64,000 nucleotides of DNA from assembly GCA_041665885.1 (NCBI GenBank), contig JBAYHY010000001.1:5715-69714 (forward strand). The letters run 5' to 3'. Both the position numbers and the translations under genes were made by a program. The notes under the pieces were generated by a model. It made no database searches. It had not been told where the DNA came from and was given only the letters and a program-made list of their open reading frames with translations. This document shows positions 10,396 to 18,698 of the stretch, piece after piece. Numbering within the stretch: the first letter of the stretch is position 1; each line of letters opens with the position of its first letter. The DNA comes from Minisyncoccota bacterium. GTDB lineage: Bacteria > Patescibacteriota > Minisyncoccia > Phycocordibacterales > UBA9973.

Positions 10396-10436
10396 TAAAA
10401 ATAAAAACGGCTAGCAGTCGTGTGAACTGCGAGCCG
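10396..10436 (-). terminator. Intrinsic terminator (CGGCTaGCAGT-loop-ACTGCgAGCCG plus U-tract on the minus strand) at the left edge of the GC-rich island
   Basis: The hairpin lies at 10408-10436. On the minus strand it is followed by TTTTTATTTTT (complement of 10397-10407). Confidence 0.6.
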
Positions 10437-10461
10437 TTGCCTGAATCCGTCAGGTGCGGGT

Positions 10462-11037
10462 TTAGTCGTAAAACCAATGGTGTCGATCACATCGGTGACA
10501 CCATCCATATCTCGTGTGATGGTGCGGATGACTAAGAGCTATTATGAGCCCTCCCGCCGCCATACTCGCCATAAATAAAAGCAACACGAGTGCTATGAAC
10601 CCCAGACAACCCCAGAAGGAAAGGTCGCCCAACCACCATGCCAAGGATATGGTCCACGGCACGTGCTGCTCTTGGCAGACCTGGGATGGAGGTAGCGGAT
10701 CGAGCGGCCTGGGTTCTGGGGTCAGCGTTGCCAAGCGATTGCCGCATGATGCTTTGTATCTCATGATGCCGTCAATGTCGACAAGAACAACCTCGCCAGC
10801 GTTCACGGTAGTCAACTCGAAAACATTTCGAGCCCGGTTGTAATTCAGAAAGTCCGTGGTAATGGCAAGCCGAGTGGGCCTGAGGCCCATGTCCGCCATC
10901 TGTCCCGCACTTAACGGACCGGACATGATCGGAAACTGATCCAAGTTAGCGCCAGCTGGAACTGTGCCAGCCACCAGCGGTGTTGCTACCGCGAGTAGCA
11001 TCATAGTCAATGCGAGAACCACCATACCGTTTTTCAT
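10462..11037 (-). CDS. Hypothetical secreted / single-pass membrane protein encoded in the GC-rich island (signal peptide, Pro-rich linker, C-terminal TM, His/Cys-rich tail)
   Basis: 191-aa ORF with a signal-peptide-like N-terminus (MKNGMVVLALTMMLLAVATPLVAG), a C-terminal hydrophobic helix and an HPHHHTRYGWCHRCDRHHW tail. It is preceded by a consensus promoter (TTGACA-18-TATAAT) and an SD (AGGAG-7-ATG) and followed by the terminator above. GC is far above the genome background. Confidence 0.5.
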   Translation of the reverse strand: MKNGMVVLALTMMLLAVATPLVAGTVPAGANLDQFPIMSGPLSAGQMADMGLRPTRLAITTDFLNYNRARNVFELTTVNAGEVVLVDIDGIMRYKASCGNRLATLTPEPRPLDPLPPSQVCQEQHVPWTISLAWWLGDLSFWGCLGFIALVLLLFMASMAAGGLIIALSHPHHHTRYGWCHRCDRHHWFYD

Positions 11038-11107
11038 CCCATTCTCCTGTCAACGTGCGAGACATTCTTTTCCCTTATTGGGATCAGCAACGCTCACCTC
11101 TCTTTAT

Positions 11108-11137
11108 ATTATATCACACTATTTACCATTTTGTCAA
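11108..11137 (-). promoter_or_regulatory. Sigma70-like promoter (TTGACA-18-TATAAT) for the island protein gene; back-to-back with the plus-strand promoter of RNA unit 1
   Basis: Minus-strand TTGACA is the complement of 11132-11137. TATAAT is the complement of 11108-11113. Confidence 0.6.
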
Positions 11138-11142
11138 GTTAT

Positions 11143-11383
11143 TGACTTTTCATTAAATCCGAATTAATGTACATTTGAACACACATCGACTTGGAAACGG
11201 ACGACATAGCCCACCTCGATAAAGACGAGAAGGACGAGGCGGAGTAAGGGCTCCCAGGGCTTCCGGTCCGCAGATGGACAACCCGCTCTAGCGTGAGAGC
11301 AACCGTTATCCTAATCTGATCGGGATTCCAAGTCATCGAACGGGCCGGCCTGCAACACGCAGGCCGGCCCATCATCATTTTTA
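11143..11383 (+). ncRNA. Candidate structured sRNA, unit 1 (promoter TTGACT-16-TAATGT, 9-bp closing stem GACUUGGAA/UUCCAAGUC, GC-rich core, intrinsic terminator)
   Basis: The -35 is at 11143-11148 and the -10 at 11165-11170. The terminator hairpin GGGCCGGCCTGC-aacac-GCAGGCCGGCCC lies at 11342-11370 and is followed by CATTTTT. The 5' and 3' ends are shared with unit 2. Confidence 0.5.
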
Positions 11384-11401
11384 ATAAATTTATTAACATT
11401 C

Positions 11402-11673
11402 TTGACTTTTTTTTAAATCCGAATTAATGTACATTTGAATATACATCGACTTGGAAGCGGGGCAGAGAATGGGAAGAATTTCCCGCCCCTCACGACGAAA
11501 CTTGTCGGCCTCTCACACGGAACACGCCGGATAGTGTCTCACGGGAAGGAATTAAATACTCTCCTTTCGGGGAAGAGAGATCGCCCGTGAATGACCTCCA
11601 ACGGTCGAAATCGTGGATTCCAAGTCACCGAATGGGCCGGCCTGCAACACGCAGGCCGGCCCACTTCATTTTT
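11402..11673 (+). ncRNA. Candidate structured sRNA, unit 2 (same promoter, closing stem and terminator as unit 1, unrelated GC-rich core)
   Basis: The -35 TTGACT is at 11402-11407 and the -10 TAATGT at 11425-11430. An identical terminator hairpin lies at 11634-11662, followed by a TTTTT tract. The core contains a GGGGCaGagaaTGGGAAgaaTTTCCCgCCCC hairpin. Confidence 0.5.
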
Positions 11674-13201
11674 ACGCAAAACCAGGGAAGAAATCGGTTT
11701 TAATATTTTTTCTTGATACTCCGATAGATTTCAAGGTATTTTCAAACGCGTCAACCATCCCCCTCGGACCGGAAATATAAAAAGTTTTATTTAAATAATT
11801 TGGAATTTCTTTCTCTATCATCCTCGCATCGATTGAACCTTTTTGCATTGATTCTTCAAATACCGCCTCCCCCTTGCCGGTAATGACATAAACTGTTTTT
11901 ATCCCTAGTTCGGCTCGCGCCCTATCGAAAACCTCCTTATAAGCAATATCCTTGGTCGTTTTATTCGAGTAAAGCAAAGTGATAGTCCTTTTTTGTTTTT
12001 TATCTAGCAAATATTTTATCATGCTACGAAATGGCGTGATACCGATACCCCCGGCAATAAACACCAAATCTTTTTCCGAGTCTTCCGGTAAAACAAAATC
12101 ACCGGATTTTTGGGCTGCGATTATTCCCCCGCCCTCCGGCATGGCAAGCAGGTGATTCTTGAAACTGCTCGGCTCCGGATAGAATTTTACTCCGAGGTGT
12201 ATTTCATCTTCTGTCGGAGATGAAGCCAGAGTAAAATATCGTCTATTCCCTCTCGTATCCGGGCTACGATGTTTGAGGGTCCACTCCATATATTGTCCGG
12301 GGCGGAAATTAAAATTTTTGTCTTTTTCAAAAATAAAATCGTAAGTGTCCACGCCGACCTTGATGCGGTCCTTCAATTTCAAAAATAATTTTTCCTTGGG
12401 GCTCACGATGTAAGCGAAAATATTTCCGATTACTAGGGCAAGCTCTGGCGTTGAATAAAATATTCCAAAATGTAGCGCTGGCGCAAATAAGAAACCGACT
12501 AGTGCACCGAAGGCGATCCGAAGCCATTTCGTGGTCGGAGCCGTCAAGGGCTCTGTGAGCATTACAAAAGCAAAGAAAAAGAACGCGGAATCCGTCATGG
12601 TCCTCATGAGAGTGGTCATGATATCCGAGCCCCTAAACATTGCCAAAACGGAAATAGTAGTGAAAGCAGAAATCAGAAAAGCAAAAAACAAGTCTGCCCG
12701 ACGAATTTTTCTGATTATCAAAAACCCACCGATCAGGACAAAAGGCAACATGTTCGGCGTCCCTATCCACCAACTAGCGGATTGATTAATCGTCAGGGCC
12801 GTGAGTGCCACCGCGAAAGCGGCGGGATTAAAAATATGTTTACCCTTGATGGCCAGAATATATTTAGACGCCATAGCCCAAACTGAAGCCCAAAAAGCAA
12901 ATGGCAAAAATTGCGAATATATCCCACTCTGAATCGGGGTAATGAGAAAAAACAAAATTAGCGCAGTTATATAAATAGATTCTGTGTTGGTAGGCGCGTC
13001 ATAAAAGAAAGAAAAAATAATATTTGTTATCCAGGATATCAACAAAATAATAAGCAGAGAGGAAATAAGATCCGTCGGACTATAGGGCAAAAAACCAAAC
13101 AATGAAAGAACCAGGGACGCACCGAAAAAAAAGATGAGGACGTATAGAACCACCCGGTACATGGTCGTTTTATTTAAAAAATTATCTACAAAATTAAGCA
13201 T
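11672..13201 (-). CDS. Membrane-bound oxidoreductase: N-terminal NqrB/RnfD-like polytopic domain fused to C-terminal ferredoxin-NADP+ reductase-like FAD/NAD(P)-binding domain
   Basis: 509 aa. The N-terminal ~300 aa are hydrophobic (HIFNPAAFAVAL, MLTEPLTAP). The C-terminus carries the RYFTLASSP (RxY[ST] FAD) motif and the GGIGITP NAD-binding motif. Confidence 0.7.
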   Translation of the reverse strand: MLNFVDNFLNKTTMYRVVLYVLIFFFGASLVLSLFGFLPYSPTDLISSLLIILLISWITNIIFSFFYDAPTNTESIYITALILFFLITPIQSGIYSQFLPFAFWASVWAMASKYILAIKGKHIFNPAAFAVALTALTINQSASWWIGTPNMLPFVLIGGFLIIRKIRRADLFFAFLISAFTTISVLAMFRGSDIMTTLMRTMTDSAFFFFAFVMLTEPLTAPTTKWLRIAFGALVGFLFAPALHFGIFYSTPELALVIGNIFAYIVSPKEKLFLKLKDRIKVGVDTYDFIFEKDKNFNFRPGQYMEWTLKHRSPDTRGNRRYFTLASSPTEDEIHLGVKFYPEPSSFKNHLLAMPEGGGIIAAQKSGDFVLPEDSEKDLVFIAGGIGITPFRSMIKYLLDKKQKRTITLLYSNKTTKDIAYKEVFDRARAELGIKTVYVITGKGEAVFEESMQKGSIDARMIEKEIPNYLNKTFYISGPRGMVDAFENTLKSIGVSRKNIKTDFFPGFA

Positions 13202-13964
13202 ATTGTTTGTTATTATTGTTTGTGTAATTTTGAAAACCAGTCGTCATCGTGGCAATCCCCTTTTTATCAATAGAATATCCTTCAAAACCCTCCAACCCCT
13301 CAATAAAGAAAATTCCGTCCTTTCCCATGGCGAATGAAGCTGTGGCATAACGATCTGCCTCAAAAATGTTCGGCCCGATTACGGTCATACTCACGATCTC
13401 TTCCAGTTTGTCATTTTTATCTTTCGGATTATATATATGTGCGCCTCGAACATAGCTTCCCGAAGTCGCAATACCTTCATCTTTCGGTAAAAATACTTTT
13501 TTTATTACTTCTCTTTTTTTGTTGAATGGATTTTGAATGCCGATACACCACGGTTCTCCTTTCTCATTTCTTCCCATCGCTTGAATATCCCCGCCCGCCT
13601 CCACATAAAAATTCTTTATTCCCCTTTTCCTTAAAATTTTACCCGCATTCCAGATAGACCATCCCTTGACCAAGCCGGAAGTGTCATAACTTCCGTTCGG
13701 GGTCACAATATCAAAATATCCATTGGTTAATTTTTTTGTTTCCTCGGAAAGTTCGAATATTTCTCTCATGTCTTCACTCATTTCTTTCTCTTTAATTTGC
13801 TTTTTGTTTATCTTTGTTATTTCGCTATCCTCCTTATAGGTACTGAATTTCTGATCCACGTACTTGAAATAATCAAACACCTCATCAAAGAGTTCCTGTT
13901 TCGCTTCCCCACTGGAAATTTCAACAATGACCGGAGTTCCCATGATTATCTGTATCTGTTTCAT
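13194..13964 (-). CDS. apbE: FAD:protein FMN transferase (ApbE/Ftp family)
   Basis: 256 aa showing ApbE-family similarity (GSYDTSGLVKGW, ATSGSYVRG, ATASFAMG). Confidence 0.8.
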   Translation of the reverse strand: MKQIQIIMGTPVIVEISSGEAKQELFDEVFDYFKYVDQKFSTYKEDSEITKINKKQIKEKEMSEDMREIFELSEETKKLTNGYFDIVTPNGSYDTSGLVKGWSIWNAGKILRKRGIKNFYVEAGGDIQAMGRNEKGEPWCIGIQNPFNKKREVIKKVFLPKDEGIATSGSYVRGAHIYNPKDKNDKLEEIVSMTVIGPNIFEADRYATASFAMGKDGIFFIEGLEGFEGYSIDKKGIATMTTGFQNYTNNNNKQYA

Positions 13965-13967
13965 CGC

Positions 13968-14528
13968 TTATATCATTGCCTGCGACAGAGCGGAAGAGAG
14001 TGATTCCCGAAAAGCAGCGCTTGTAAATGAAGCCCCGGAAACAGTATCTACGTTCGAATCCTGGATAGAAATGGCCTCACTTGTAAGTCGAGGCATTGCG
14101 TATGAATTAATTCGAACGGAGTTTTGTCTATCCTGCGGATAATCCAAAAATTGCACGTCGGTTATTTTTCCACCGGCAATGACCGCTTTTACCTGCACAT
14201 TGCCATAGTACGCATCGACTGCTGTACCAGTGTAGCTTCCATTTTTATATTTACCGATATCAACTACCGGAGGTGGCGGCACCGGAGTAGAAGGCGCGGA
14301 GTTATTTTGCGTCGGAGGACGGGCGGGAGAAGGACTGGCAGTTGTCGGTTTTGGTTTGGGGCTTGCTGTCTGGGTATTTGTGTTGTACTGGGGCAGTGAT
14401 AATGCTACGCTCGTTTTGCTTGATTGGGGAGCCAAAAAAGCCGGCGCCTCTGCTCCAAGGATTCGTACATGTAAAACATACGCAATGAACACAAATATCA
14501 ACGATGATGATAATAGGGCTTTTTTCAT
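13968..14528 (-). CDS. Membrane-anchored FMN-binding domain protein (NqrC/RnfG-like FMN_bind domain; likely flavinylation target)
   Basis: An N-terminal anchor and a Pro/Thr/Ser-rich linker are followed by an FMN_bind domain carrying the flavinylation-type motif DTVSGASFTSAAF. Confidence 0.7.
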   Translation of the reverse strand: MKKALLSSSLIFVFIAYVLHVRILGAEAPAFLAPQSSKTSVALSLPQYNTNTQTASPKPKPTTASPSPARPPTQNNSAPSTPVPPPPVVDIGKYKNGSYTGTAVDAYYGNVQVKAVIAGGKITDVQFLDYPQDRQNSVRINSYAMPRLTSEAISIQDSNVDTVSGASFTSAAFRESLSSALSQAMI

Positions 14529-14575: not shown

Positions 14576-15802
14576 CTAATCGTGCTCAGTGCCTGAATTT
14601 CCCTGCCCAGAATCATCGAAGTTGTTGGGCGTATTTGAATTTTGTCCACCCTGATTTTGATTTATATAATCATTATCCTCTTCGAAGTTATCATCCTCTA
14701 TCTCCTGGCCATCGTCGTCCTCAATGCCCATATCGTCTTCTATGTCTCCCTTGATGGTATTAGAGAGGAGTAACAATCTCGCTGCGTCCGTCAGACTCAT
14801 GGCTGATTGAAATTTGCTTGCAGCCCCATTGAAATCAGATGAAGCAATTAAGGCCTCGCCTGCTTTGAACGTTGTCTCGATTTCCGCGAGTTTGCCATCT
14901 ATGCTATTTTGCGTTTTTATGGATAAACTATTCCTTTCTCTCTGGTAGAGAAGCTTCATGGAGTTCAACAAATCTGATGCTGTTTTTTGTTTTTCCTGAG
15001 CAAGAGCGAGGCCGGTCGAGGTCGTAGTAGGCGTAGCGTTTTCCTCCGACGAAGTTTCTGTAGTTGATTCTGAATCAATTGAGGATTCCAGGTCATCATA
15101 GCCATTCCTTACTCTATTCTGAGATTCCGCGAGCGAAGAGAGCAATCGGTCCGTTTCTTGTTTTGTTTCAGCATTGACATCTTTGCCGTTTGACACAGCC
15201 AGAAGAACATCTTGATGCGCAGCAAGGGCCGCTTGCAATCTGATATTTATGTCGGAGGATTTGGTGGATTCATTATTTTGTTTAGCCAATTCTTCAGCGC
15301 TGGCATTAAAATCGTCAATTTGTCTTTGGATGGCGCCTTCTAGGTAAAGTCGGCCCTCTTCATCGAGGCTATTCGCAGAAACAAGTTTCTGTGCTTCATT
15401 CAACCTGCGTTCCACCAATCTTTCTCGCCACTCTGTTTTCTCTTCCTTGGTGAAAGCGAACAATCCAGCGACGGGCTCATTTACCGACACTTTCACTCCG
15501 TACAACAAGTCCCCGGGAACAGCCATTTCGGCGAAAGCGGAAGTGCCCCCGAGAAGAATAACAATCAAGAATACTGCGACAATGGGTATAAATTTATATT
15601 TATTGTTCATGAAATAATAATTTTTAATGTTCTGATAATGCCTATATAGACGGACGGCAAACGTATTTGTTACATGATTATTCTGTTCAAATTTAGCTGA
15701 TTGAATTTTCTCCAATATAAAAGTACGCATTTTTTCCTTCTCGGCGCTAGCGAGTTTGATATTTTTTACCGCGTTCTTTATTTGTTCAAATTCGTTATTC
15801 AT
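14576..15802 (-). CDS. Putative anti-sigma factor (cytoplasmic N-domain, one TM, acidic extracytoplasmic domain)
   Basis: The gene lies immediately downstream of, and overlaps, the ECF sigma factor gene. A single TM (IPIVAVFLIVILLGG) separates the N-domain from a coiled-coil, acidic C-terminus. Confidence 0.5.
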   Translation of the reverse strand: MNNEFEQIKNAVKNIKLASAEKEKMRTFILEKIQSAKFEQNNHVTNTFAVRLYRHYQNIKNYYFMNNKYKFIPIVAVFLIVILLGGTSAFAEMAVPGDLLYGVKVSVNEPVAGLFAFTKEEKTEWRERLVERRLNEAQKLVSANSLDEEGRLYLEGAIQRQIDDFNASAEELAKQNNESTKSSDINIRLQAALAAHQDVLLAVSNGKDVNAETKQETDRLLSSLAESQNRVRNGYDDLESSIDSESTTETSSEENATPTTTSTGLALAQEKQKTASDLLNSMKLLYQRERNSLSIKTQNSIDGKLAEIETTFKAGEALIASSDFNGAASKFQSAMSLTDAARLLLLSNTIKGDIEDDMGIEDDDGQEIEDDNFEEDNDYINQNQGGQNSNTPNNFDDSGQGNSGTEHD

Positions 15803-16313
15803 TTTTGTTTCCTATTTTATCAAACAAGTTTTTAAGCTTTTCTTTTGCTCGACTAATCCTCACCAATACAGTGTTCTCCCGCTCTCCGAGCAACTCTGCC
15901 ATATCTTTCGAACTCATGTCCTCGATAAACCTTAGAATAATTACATCTCTGTCGGACGGGGGCAACTTATCAAGCAGAGAAAGGAAAATTGAATAATCAA
16001 TATTGTTCTCTGTGTTATCCTTTTCCGCGATTGATTCGAAAAATCCTTCCGGTAATTGGCTCTCCACCACGCTTTTCTTCTTTCTCCAATAATCGATGAC
16101 AGTATTCTTCGCAGTAATGTAAATAAAACTCTTGGCGTTCTGTGCCTCGCTATTCTTCAGATAATTGAATACCTTGATAAAAGTATCTTGCGCCAAATCT
16201 TTTGCCACTTCCCTGTCTCCGGTCTTAAAATAGCAAAAACGAAAAATAGCGTCTGCGTGTGCGTCATATAATTCAACGAACAATTCTTCTATTTTATCAT
16301 CACCGTTATTCAT
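15795..16313 (-). CDS. ECF-type RNA polymerase sigma-70 factor
   Basis: 172 aa. Region 2 (DLAQDTFIKVF, YITAKNTVIDYWRKK) and region 4 (DRDVIILRFIEDMSSKDMAELLG) are both present. Confidence 0.85.
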   Translation of the reverse strand: MNNGDDKIEELFVELYDAHADAIFRFCYFKTGDREVAKDLAQDTFIKVFNYLKNSEAQNAKSFIYITAKNTVIDYWRKKKSVVESQLPEGFFESIAEKDNTENNIDYSIFLSLLDKLPPSDRDVIILRFIEDMSSKDMAELLGERENTVLVRISRAKEKLKNLFDKIGNKNE

Positions 16314-16871: not shown

Positions 16872-17388
16872 AAAAAAGCCGTCGAGAAACTCGACAGGCC
16901 TTTGGTGATAATTTGGGTGGGGAGGTTTCCTAGTGGAAACCTCCCCTAACCCTTTTGGTCACGATGTGGCTGTGGGGGATTGATTTTTGTTTTTGCCCCG
17001 TTAGCCCGACATGGCGACCGATGTGAGAGAGCAAGTTCGCGTCCTAGACGCCATGCTCTCACGACTCCAGAAAAACAACTAATTTTTTTCAAACAGGAGC
17101 TTTTACGACCTTCCTGGGGTCAAGTTGACCCGAGCTCCTTGGTCGCCGCCGAAGCCCTCAGGCTTCGACGAAACTGGCAGTGTCGCGCGCGTTTATCACG
17201 ACTCCCTCCCTTCTAATTCTTTCTTGGGCGCTGGTTAGCGGCCCATGCCGTCGGGCTTGCGGGCGGTGGCGAAGCCGGCGATCTTGGTCTTCTTCTTCGA
17301 ATTTTCCATCTTCTCGAGGAACCGGGGGGAACCGCGAATCATGCGAGCCTCCTACCGTGATAACCAGGGACCTCCCCCAGCTATCTTC
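16872..17388 (-). ncRNA. Candidate large (~515 nt) GC-rich structured RNA of unknown class, bounded by a consensus promoter and an intrinsic terminator
   Basis: The minus-strand promoter is TTGACA(comp 17417-17422)-16-TATACT(comp 17395-17400). The terminator on the minus strand is GUCGAG-uuu-CUCGAC-GGC-UUUUUU (16877-16895). Perfect hairpins are dense throughout, e.g. GGGGAGGTTTCC-tagt-GGAAACCTCCCC, GGGTCAAGTTGACCC, AGGAGCT...AGCTCCT and GTGAGAGAGC...GCTCTCAC. GC is far above background. Confidence 0.5.
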
Positions 17389-17394
17389 CCACAC

Positions 17395-17422
17395 AGTATA
17401 GCACTACTACAAAAAATGTCAA
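17395..17422 (-). promoter_or_regulatory. Consensus sigma70-like promoter (TTGACA-16-TATACT) driving the GC-rich RNA candidate
   Basis: The -35 and -10 hexamers are seen directly as complements of tgtcaa (17417-17422) and agtata (17395-17400). Confidence 0.6.
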
Positions 17423-17490: not shown

Positions 17491-18456
17491 CTATATAATC
17501 GCATTGAATAGATATCCCGTAAGAATAATCCCGGTAGCCACTATCCCGGCGAAAATCAAAATCAATTTAATCTTCATTACTTTCTTTAAAATCATAAACT
17601 CCGGCAAAGATAAGGCGGTCACGGACATCATAAATGCAAGCGTAGTTCCGACTGAAACTCCCTTTTCAGTCAAAGCGGAAACAAGCGGGATAACTCCAGC
17701 AGCATTCGAATATAAAGGAATACCGATAAGCACAGCGAGCGGCACTGCATACCATTTATCACTTCCGGCATATTGGGCCAAAAAATCAGCCGGAACATAG
17801 CCATGTATCCAGGCTCCGATTCCAATCCCGATTAAAATATATATCCAAACTTTTTTCAATATATCCAGAGTGTACTCTTTTGCATAAGCGATTCTTTCCT
17901 TTCCCGTCATTGTCGGTAGGTCGATATTCCCATTCAATGTATTTTGATAGACAAAGGGTTCAACCAAGCCCTCTACCTTCATTTTACCGATAATTATTCC
18001 TGAGAGAATGGCAATAATAAGTCCACTGACTATATACATGAGAGCGATTTTCCAGCCAAACATTCCGAGAAGTAAAACAAGTGCCACCTCATTTATCATC
18101 GGAGAAGCGATAAGGAATGAAAATGTAGTTCCAAGAGGAACACCTGCTTGAACAAATCCTAAAAATAGTGGGATGGCGGAACAAGAGCAAAAGGGAGTAA
18201 TAATTCCTAGAAGTGAAGCAATCACATTCCCCAGGTACTTATTTTTGTGAGATAAAATCGCTCGTATTTTCTCCGGTGGTAAATATGAGCGAATGATAGA
18301 AACAAGGAAAATAATAACAGCTAGTAAAATAAATATTTTAAGTGTGTCAAAAATAAAAAAATTAACGGCGCCCGCTAAAAGAGTTTTGGGAGTAATATTA
18401 AAAACCGCATAGGTCAACCAGTCAGCAAATAATTGAATGGGATAAAAAATGCTCAT
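17491..18456 (-). CDS. DUF318/ArsP-family permease (TPFCSCS motif)
   Basis: 321 aa polytopic protein with the ITPFCSCSAIP motif characteristic of the ArsP/PF03773 family. Confidence 0.7.
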   Translation of the reverse strand: MSIFYPIQLFADWLTYAVFNITPKTLLAGAVNFFIFDTLKIFILLAVIIFLVSIIRSYLPPEKIRAILSHKNKYLGNVIASLLGIITPFCSCSAIPLFLGFVQAGVPLGTTFSFLIASPMINEVALVLLLGMFGWKIALMYIVSGLIIAILSGIIIGKMKVEGLVEPFVYQNTLNGNIDLPTMTGKERIAYAKEYTLDILKKVWIYILIGIGIGAWIHGYVPADFLAQYAGSDKWYAVPLAVLIGIPLYSNAAGVIPLVSALTEKGVSVGTTLAFMMSVTALSLPEFMILKKVMKIKLILIFAGIVATGIILTGYLFNAII

Positions 18457-18458
18457 AA

Positions 18459-18698
18459 TTACATATTTTCTTCTATTATTTTTTTGATTTTTTCAATATC
18501 CGAAGTAAAGCCAACCAAAACCGGTTTTTCATTTATCACCAAAACGGGACTCTGCATCAAACCCATGGCAATAATCTTTTGCACGTCGGTAATGTATTCA
18601 ACATTTTCTTTTAAGCCCAAAGTGGCAACCGCCTTTTGAGTAATTTCAAACAACTTTTTACATGTTGCGCACCCCGAACCCAATACTTGTATTTTCAT
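18459..18698 (-). CDS. Thioredoxin-fold redox-active disulfide protein 2 (CxxC)
   Basis: 79 aa with a GCATC motif. This family is commonly paired with PF03773 permeases. Confidence 0.7.
   Translation of the reverse strand: MKIQVLGSGCATCKKLFEITQKAVATLGLKENVEYITDVQKIIAMGLMQSPVLVINEKPVLVGFTSDIEKIKKIIEENM

Follow-up and report, generated by a model that had tools for sequence, protein, structure and literature searches.

The closest described relatives of the locus examined here were grouped in 2021 by Méheust et al. (eLife) as the NQR/RNF-like system, in which one protein fusing PF03116 to PF00175 is encoded within a flavinylation gene cluster (PMC8238504). That report already recorded the system from the candidate phyla radiation (CPR) and put forward the hypothesis that it transfers electrons from NAD(P)H to the outside of the cell. 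In 2024, an AlphaFold-multimer model of a Ktedonobacter complex placed the flavin site of an NqrC-like subunit at the flavin pocket of an RnfD-like subunit; that study describes the threonine (Thr) of the RnfD-like subunit as not conserved and suggests that the covalent flavin of the NqrC-like subunit samples the RnfD-like pocket (PMC10979944). Here we analyzed a stretch of 64,000 nucleotides (nt) from a Minisyncoccota bacterium (contig JBAYHY010000001.1, positions 5,715 to 69,714; the whole 64-kb stretch is called the window below), which contains a three-gene cassette encoding an FMN_bind protein, an ApbE flavin transferase, and a fusion of an RnfD/NqrB-like membrane domain with a reductase. 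The cassette belongs to the NQR/RNF-like flavinylation system; its architecture is already known, and it is not a new kind of system.

The list of open reading frames (ORFs) places all three genes where an original prediction made from the sequence had put them; all are on the minus strand:

13968-14528, minus strand: gene 1, FMN_bind protein (186 amino acids (aa); Pfam PF04205, E=8e-8)
13194-13964, minus strand: gene 2, ApbE (256 aa; Pfam PF02424, E=2.6e-41)
11672-13201, minus strand: gene 3, fusion protein (509 aa; PF03116 and PF00175)

The packing is operon-like. The FMN_bind gene ends in TAA, a single codon (GCG) follows, and the ATG of ApbE comes next (3-nt spacing), while the ApbE and fusion genes overlap by 8 nt. 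Pfam, NCBIfam and fold comparison bore out the domain assignments predicted for all three proteins, and the motifs named in that prediction are present: DTVSGAS in the FMN_bind protein, and RRYFTLASSP and GGIGITP in the fusion protein.

The structural hallmarks of the NQR/RNF-like system are found here. PF03116 lies N-terminal and PF00175 C-terminal in a single protein, the genes for FMN_bind and ApbE are both immediately upstream of the fusion gene and so within five genes of it, and the RnfD-like domain has lost the flavinylated Thr, as in the 2024 description. Occurrence in the CPR and the lack of other Rnf/Nqr subunits are shared as well. When E. coli RsxA, B, C, D, G, and E were compared with all ORFs of the window by phmmer, the sole match was the fusion protein, via RsxD (E=2.5e-5); with the three cassette proteins added as queries, no other Rnf, Nqr, ApbE, or FMN_bind homologue appeared in the window. 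The core architecture does not differ in any respect from the published one. Two features described below go beyond the accessible text of the two papers (PMC8238504, PMC10979944): an ApbE that is uniformly compact (~248 aa) and leaderless, and the Patescibacteria/Chloroflexota make-up of the closest 80 loci.

A scan using one genome per species found relatives in at least 567 genomes, and all counts of related loci given here rest on the best 80 of these. The NQR/RNF-like family is far larger than the 127 genomes of the 2021 report (PMC8238504). The closest 80 relatives among the matches listed come from many CPR lineages and from Chloroflexota, and about 65 of the 80 loci keep the order FMN_bind, ApbE, fusion. 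With the membrane domain alone as query, a search of 1.84 billion representatives gave 368 protein clusters at E<=1e-30; since these are mostly ~490-510 aa long, most are fused to a reductase. As a side observation, the titles "uncultured Candidatus Saccharibacteria" and "uncultured Gammaproteobacteria" on contigs L004, L006, L012, L055, and others, which carry close relatives of the cassette (52-75% identity among those named), look unreliable and stem from automated submissions of metagenome-assembled genomes (MAGs).

The fusion protein divides into the following parts:

12398..13201, minus strand: RnfD/NqrB-fold membrane domain (residues 1-268; 10 predicted helices, N-in/C-in)
12767..12784, minus strand: truncated outer loop QSASWW (residues 140-145), at the site of RnfD's ~70-residue loop with the flavinylated Thr
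11675..12394, minus strand: cytoplasmic FNR-type domain for flavin adenine dinucleotide (FAD) and NAD(P)H (residues 270-509; NqrF-like, without the 2Fe-2S domain)

The Pfam match to PF03116 (NQR2_RnfD_RnfE) scores 33.5 bits (cut-off 27.7) and covers residues 152-265, corresponding to profile positions 176-285 of 296 only. A family profile of the fusion matched E. coli RsxD with 93.7% probability (E=1.9e-7, residues 156-262), and the RnfD/NqrB fold was confirmed across the entire membrane domain. The N-terminal domain is therefore NqrB/RnfD-like by both profile and fold, as had been predicted. Its topology follows the distribution of positive charges (8 vs 1 in favor of the inside). In the C-terminal half, PF00175 matches residues 381-486 (E=6e-17), and residues ~283-505 match the reductase modules of flavohaemoprotein, BenC, PaaE, and NqrF (NCBIfam). 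Both domains of an FNR-like reductase are present: an FAD-binding barrel with R-x-Y-[ST] (RRYFTLASSP, residues 320-329) and an NAD(P)H-binding domain with G-x-G-x-x-P (GGIGITP, residues 384-390). We considered RYFTLASSP as a possible flavinylation-like motif and ruled it out, because it is the standard FAD-binding R-x-Y-[ST] motif of FNR proteins; it is invariant in the aligned relatives. The family retains many other invariant residues across 24 sequences of 57-83% identity.

E. coli RsxD has a ~70-residue periplasmic loop that holds DGISQAT(187)PLD and is followed by WLAGGVWLLWQKAIRW. In the fusion, FNPAAFAVALTALTINQSASWW passes directly into IGTPNMLPFVLIGGFLIIRKIRR, and the counterpart of this loop is absent. 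The flanks can be aligned: FNPA...TSW of the fusion is colinear with RsxD, and pairwise and profile alignments agree on two blocks (fusion 113-130 with RnfD 110-127, and fusion 147-261 with RnfD 215-328). The deletion falls on the predicted outer face of the protein. With the loop, the S/T-x-A-T site that carries covalent flavin mononucleotide (FMN) on D/B-type subunits is gone, so the membrane domain has no ApbE target of its own, and the sole flavinylation motif of the cassette is the one on the FMN_bind subunit. The idea that ApbE also flavinylates the NqrB/RnfD-like domain does not apply here. Nor is QSASWW a vestigial flavinylation site: it is colinear with VQMTSW of RsxD, at the end of the preceding helix, rather than with DGISQAT, and the upstream Asp is absent. 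Because the loop is deleted, we think that the tethered FMN subunit docks in its place.

That subunit has three recognizable elements:

14466..14519, minus strand: signal-anchor helix (residues 4-21, after MKK)
14028..14048, minus strand: DTVSGAS motif for flavinylation (residues 161-167; FMN is predicted to attach at Ser167)
13986..14210, minus strand: FMN_bind domain proper (residues 107-181; Pfam profile positions 2-76 of 77)

MKK and an 18-residue hydrophobic helix are followed by a variable Pro/Thr/Ser-rich linker (residues ~27-90) and a compact domain of ~85 residues. The N-terminus has no Cys, and its AEA site is followed by Pro, which gives it the look of a signal anchor that is not cleaved. 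Its maximal 19-aa hydropathy is 1.96. The pattern MKK..LS...I..F..Y is kept across 54 homologues, which suggests that the anchor helix may pack specifically against the membrane domain of its partner. The positive-inside rule predicts N-in/C-out for 59 of 65 FMN_bind homologues, and no twin-arginine motif occurs among the 65. The nearest solved structure to the FMN_bind domain is 8p2a_A (E=2e-14), a flavinylated single domain of a multi-flavinylated protein; DTVSGAS aligns with its DAVSGAT. The motif, D-x-x-S-G-A-[ST], stands ~19 residues before the C-terminus, and the S-G-A-[ST] columns are kept in the homologues.

The ApbE of the cassette is recognizable by both sequence and structure. Solved ApbE structures match it at E~1e-19, its catalytic His region GAHIYNP aligns with YSHIIDP of V. 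cholerae, and EADRYAT fits D-x-x-x-T. Across 71 ApbE homologues, TSGxY, H[ILVM]x[DN]P, and ADxxxT are retained in 66-70. The residues of these motifs have catalytic (His) and metal-binding roles in ApbE enzymes. A segment equal to ~residues 106-156 of E. coli ApbE is absent, and the median length across related loci is 248 aa. The protein starts MKQIQIIMGT, just 7 residues ahead of the conserved MG[TM]. An in-frame TAA stands two codons ahead of the ATG and excludes a longer N-terminus. The protein has neither a signal peptide nor a lipobox, and the same short start recurs in ~70 related loci, none of which encodes a hydrophobic segment in its ApbE (median of maximal 19-aa hydropathy 1.07). 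We also considered, and rejected, the idea that read-through or an alternative code could join FMN_bind to ApbE and thereby lend it a leader. The two ORFs are in frame here, but the stop is TAA, and among relatives the distance from that stop to the ApbE start ranges from -4 to +10 nt, in all frames. The typical ApbE is a lipoprotein that is secreted, and those leaderless members described to date act on cytoplasmic proteins (PMC12052999). The secretion or lipoprotein signal of the typical form is missing here, and the cassette ApbE and its target are predicted to lie on opposite sides, the enzyme in the cytoplasm and the target facing outward. In a related locus, the Anaerolineae contig L034, a second, distant ApbE homologue (3920-4861, minus strand; 313 aa) stands just downstream of the cassette. 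We looked at it as a possible leader-bearing contrast; it is likewise leaderless and so uninformative.

Taken together, we consider it probable, with appreciable room for doubt, that the locus encodes an NQR/RNF-like, minimal, all-flavin, two-subunit transmembrane conduit with its own flavin transferase. In RnfD/NqrB, riboflavin lies towards the cytoplasm and covalent FMN towards the periplasm, ~8 Å apart (PMC12174285). By analogy, NAD(P)H would reduce the FAD of the FNR domain at the cytoplasmic face, and the electron would pass to a non-covalent flavin held in the membrane domain at the site equivalent to that of riboflavin. From there it would move ~8 Å onward to the covalent FMN on Ser167 of the FMN_bind subunit, which would be installed by the cassette ApbE, with the subunit docked in the outer pocket vacated by the loop deletion. 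Held by its long, flexible Pro/Thr/Ser linker, the FMN_bind domain could then hand electrons to an extracytoplasmic acceptor such as ferric iron, free flavins, oxygen, or a component of the host or cell wall. The outcome would be reoxidation of NAD(P)H in an organism without a respiratory chain. The self-contained NAD(P)H-to-extracytoplasmic-flavin conduit proposed by the original prediction is thereby supported, its function being one that we infer; it equals the hypothesis published for the identical architecture (PMC8238504, PMC10979944).

Several observations weigh against this proposal. A leaderless, predicted-cytoplasmic ApbE is at odds with an outward FMN_bind domain, unless the subunit is flavinylated before it is exported. 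Among solved structures, no NqrC or RnfG chain matched the FMN_bind domain at E<=1, so the subunit is NqrC/RnfG-like in role and Pfam family, not in close sequence. A single-chain AlphaFold model of the fusion is of moderate quality (predicted local distance difference test, pLDDT, 78.9; predicted template-modeling score, pTM, 0.67). When the neighbors in the 80 related loci were clustered, neither a terminal reductase nor a VIT1 transporter nor any other partner proved to be conserved, and the searchable literature holds no experimental study of any NQR/RNF-like member.

The enzyme and the target motif predicted for extracytoplasmic flavinylation are both confirmed, and it is the side of the membrane that poses the problem. 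Three ways out can be envisaged: FMN may be attached in the cytoplasm, ahead of subunit export or in the course of it; the FMN_bind domain may not lie outside; or ApbE may be exported in another way. We favor the first because the topology evidence from the anchor and from the deleted loop is consistent. ApbE being leaderless, FMN is most likely attached on the cytoplasmic side, before or during subunit export, although this is the least certain step of the scheme, and one that we infer. A dedicated leaderless ApbE that installs covalent FMN in the cytoplasm may spare the cell the need for FAD export.

The second way out leads to a different machine. If the flavinylated domain were cytoplasmic, the complex would be a membrane-anchored cytoplasmic NAD(P)H oxidoreductase rather than an outward flavin shuttle, with electrons running from FAD to the covalent FMN, then to the flavin of the membrane domain, and on to an acceptor in the membrane or outside. 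The absence of a leader or hydrophobic segment from ApbE in all ~70 loci, with the in-frame stop that excludes a longer N-terminus, fits this arrangement, as does the fact that known leaderless ApbEs flavinylate cytoplasmic enzymes (PMC12052999); supplying FAD from the cytoplasm would also be simple for a reduced genome. It is opposed by the conserved MKK anchor with its N-in/C-out orientation in 59 of 65 homologues, by the variable Pro/Thr/Ser-rich linker, which is typical of extracytoplasmic stalks, and by the deleted loop, whose position is on the side predicted to be the outer one. Homology places both the RnfG/NqrC domains and the pocket for covalent FMN in RnfD/NqrB on the periplasmic side (PMC12174285), and the published multimer model docks the subunit outside (PMC10979944). 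We therefore regard a cytoplasmic location as unlikely.

We then compared the proposed outward conduit with better-known systems. With Rnf (RnfABCDGE) and Na+-NQR (NqrABCDEF), it shares the RnfD/NqrB fold, an NqrF-like FAD/NADH domain, a single-helix FMN_bind subunit (RnfG/NqrC), and dependence on ApbE. The differences are considerable. The cassette has two subunits where the canonical complexes have six, and a six-subunit set is not found in the window. It lacks Fe-S clusters, RnfA/E, RnfB, RnfC/NqrA, and the ferredoxin domain of NqrF. Its reductase is fused straight to the D/B-type subunit, whose covalent-FMN loop is deleted, and its FMN_bind domain is of the compact ~85-aa type, not NqrC/RnfG-like by sequence. 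Electron flow is presumed to run one way, outward, whereas in the canonical complexes it is semicircular.

The same relationship raises the possibility of a minimal, iron-free, redox-driven pump, in which the NqrB/RnfD-like fold would couple outward electron flow from NAD(P)H to export of Na+ or H+, a role that has been proposed for NqrB/RnfD in NQR and RNF. This would be compatible with the conduit, as an added property of it. However, the RnfA/E-NqrD/E pair and the two-partner switching that are central to current pump models are absent (phmmer, window), and the position of the protonatable Glu219 of A. vinelandii RnfD appears to be Met in the fusion, as read from the pairwise alignment. The driving force would hang on the identity of the acceptor, and the ion path is disputed even in RNF itself (PMC12174285). 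On balance, pumping is decidedly doubtful. That the locus is a stray or decaying remnant of an Rnf/Nqr operon, in which an RnfD paralogue has chance neighbors and no function of its own, is hardly credible. In favor of this are the partial PF03116 match and the NCBI name of a 100% identical protein ("RnfABCDGE type electron transport complex subunit D"), which comes from a Candidatus Paceibacterota MAG. Against it, the three-gene cassette is intact in ~65 of 80 loci, drawn from many CPR classes and Chloroflexota; many residues are invariant among the 24 aligned sequences (57-83% identity); the fused architecture holds uniformly over hundreds of protein clusters; and the window contains no other Rnf genes.

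The comparison also covered two further systems. Flavin-based extracellular electron transfer (EET) in Listeria and other Firmicutes (Ndh2, EetA/EetB, PplA, FmnB) follows the same idea, in that electrons from NADH reach external acceptors through an ApbE-flavinylated, tethered FMN_bind protein. The likeness to Gram-positive EET noted in the original prediction stands at this functional level; it does not extend to quinone-dependent components, as the step through Ndh2 and quinone is replaced in the cassette by the RnfD-like flavin domain. Pfam scans of the cassette's neighbors revealed no Ndh2, EetA, or EetB, with the limit that no dedicated profiles for these three were run. Moreover, FmnB acts outside the cell and requires FAD export (PMC9973259), whereas the cassette ApbE is leaderless. 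The NOX/FRE enzymes (e.g. SpNOX) have an unrelated membrane domain: theirs is a six-helix, di-haem ferric-reductase domain, while the RnfD/NqrB fold presumably holds flavin. The Pfam scan gave no match to PF01794.

Neighboring genes scanned in the window with Pfam are housekeeping or thiol-redox genes. Upstream of the cassette lie the following:

14576-15802, minus strand: DUF5667 membrane protein (408 aa; acidic low-complexity tail)
15795-16313, minus strand: extracytoplasmic function (ECF)-type sigma factor (172 aa; Sigma70_r2/r4 matches)
17491-18698, minus strand: ArsP_1-family permease (321 aa, E=6e-82), then a 79-aa Thioredoxin_3 protein

The ECF sigma gene overlaps the DUF5667 gene by 8 nt, a layout that resembles a sigma/anti-sigma pair, and the 47-nt gap ahead of gene 1 holds only weak promoter-like matches. 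An upstream ECF sigma cluster occurs in 16 of the 80 related loci and a DUF5667 protein in 7. The pair may regulate the cassette in this sub-lineage, although the link is weak. The permease and Thioredoxin_3 genes form a membrane/thiol-redox pair a few kb from the cassette.

The GC-rich island described beside the cassette is also present: GC content is 50-58% at ~10400-11670, directly beside the fusion gene, against ~38-40% in the surroundings. It and a second patch contain these features:

10462-11037, minus strand: orphan GC-rich (55-58%) ORF (191 aa; signal peptide, C-terminal membrane helix, His/Cys-rich tail SHPHHHTRYGWCHRCDRHHWFYD)
~11176-11385 and 11436-11675, plus strand: two tandem GC-rich units resembling small RNAs (sRNAs), which converge on the fusion gene
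16875-17422, minus strand: another GC-rich patch (GC 55-58%), between a strong promoter-like site (TTGACA-16-TATACT with TG) and a terminator-like hairpin

The orphan ORF has a perfect sigma-70-type promoter (TTGACA-18-TATAAT at 11137-11108). It has no Pfam or NCBIfam match, and a search of 5.8 billion proteins returned itself and one 57%-identical protein. A syntenic copy is found in related locus L003 (9939-10457), the only one of the 80. We considered the protein as a partner or acceptor, and thus a core component, and rejected it as an orphan present in only 1 of 80 loci; the ORF is probably foreign DNA acquired by this lineage.

The two sRNA-like units fold with minimum free energy z-scores of -6.0 and -5.6. 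Each has TTGACT-N17-TAATGT upstream, a 5' CGACUUGGAA complementary to a 3' UUCCAAGUC, with which it pairs, and an end formed by the GC hairpin GGGCCGGCCUGCAACACGCAGGCCGGCCC and then a U-run, while the branched interiors are unlike each other. Single homologues lie in related loci L003 (9528-9775) and L084 (646-888), likewise convergent with the 3' end of a fusion gene. Comparison of the four sequences gave double changes at 6 pairs only. A metagenome scan for the element returned 0 matches with a first pattern and 8 loci with a second, 7 of which were chance matches in coding DNA. The second patch has a predicted transcript of ~514 nt (fold z = -6.2) and contains a 35-aa ORF (17235-17342) behind AGGAGG; it is absent from the 80 related loci and has no Rfam match. 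Across both patches, nothing in Rfam rose above threshold, with sub-threshold PtaRNA1 matches on the sRNA-unit hairpins only. As judged from sequence, the patches contain candidate structured RNAs beside the cassette.

The usual picture of CPR bacteria, or Patescibacteria, is that of fermentative symbionts that lack electron-transport chains. With two structural subunits and no metal clusters, the cassette is a compact target for biochemistry and cryo-electron microscopy. The predicted cytoplasmic location of its ApbE is either a sign that flavinylation comes before export or a challenge to the topology that has been assumed. If the ion-pump reading were true, CPR bacteria would have a respiration-like means of energizing their membrane. 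A widespread, strongly conserved cassette with the possible ability to carry NAD(P)H electrons through the membrane is relevant to the redox balance of CPR bacteria, to their acquisition of iron, or to their interaction with hosts.

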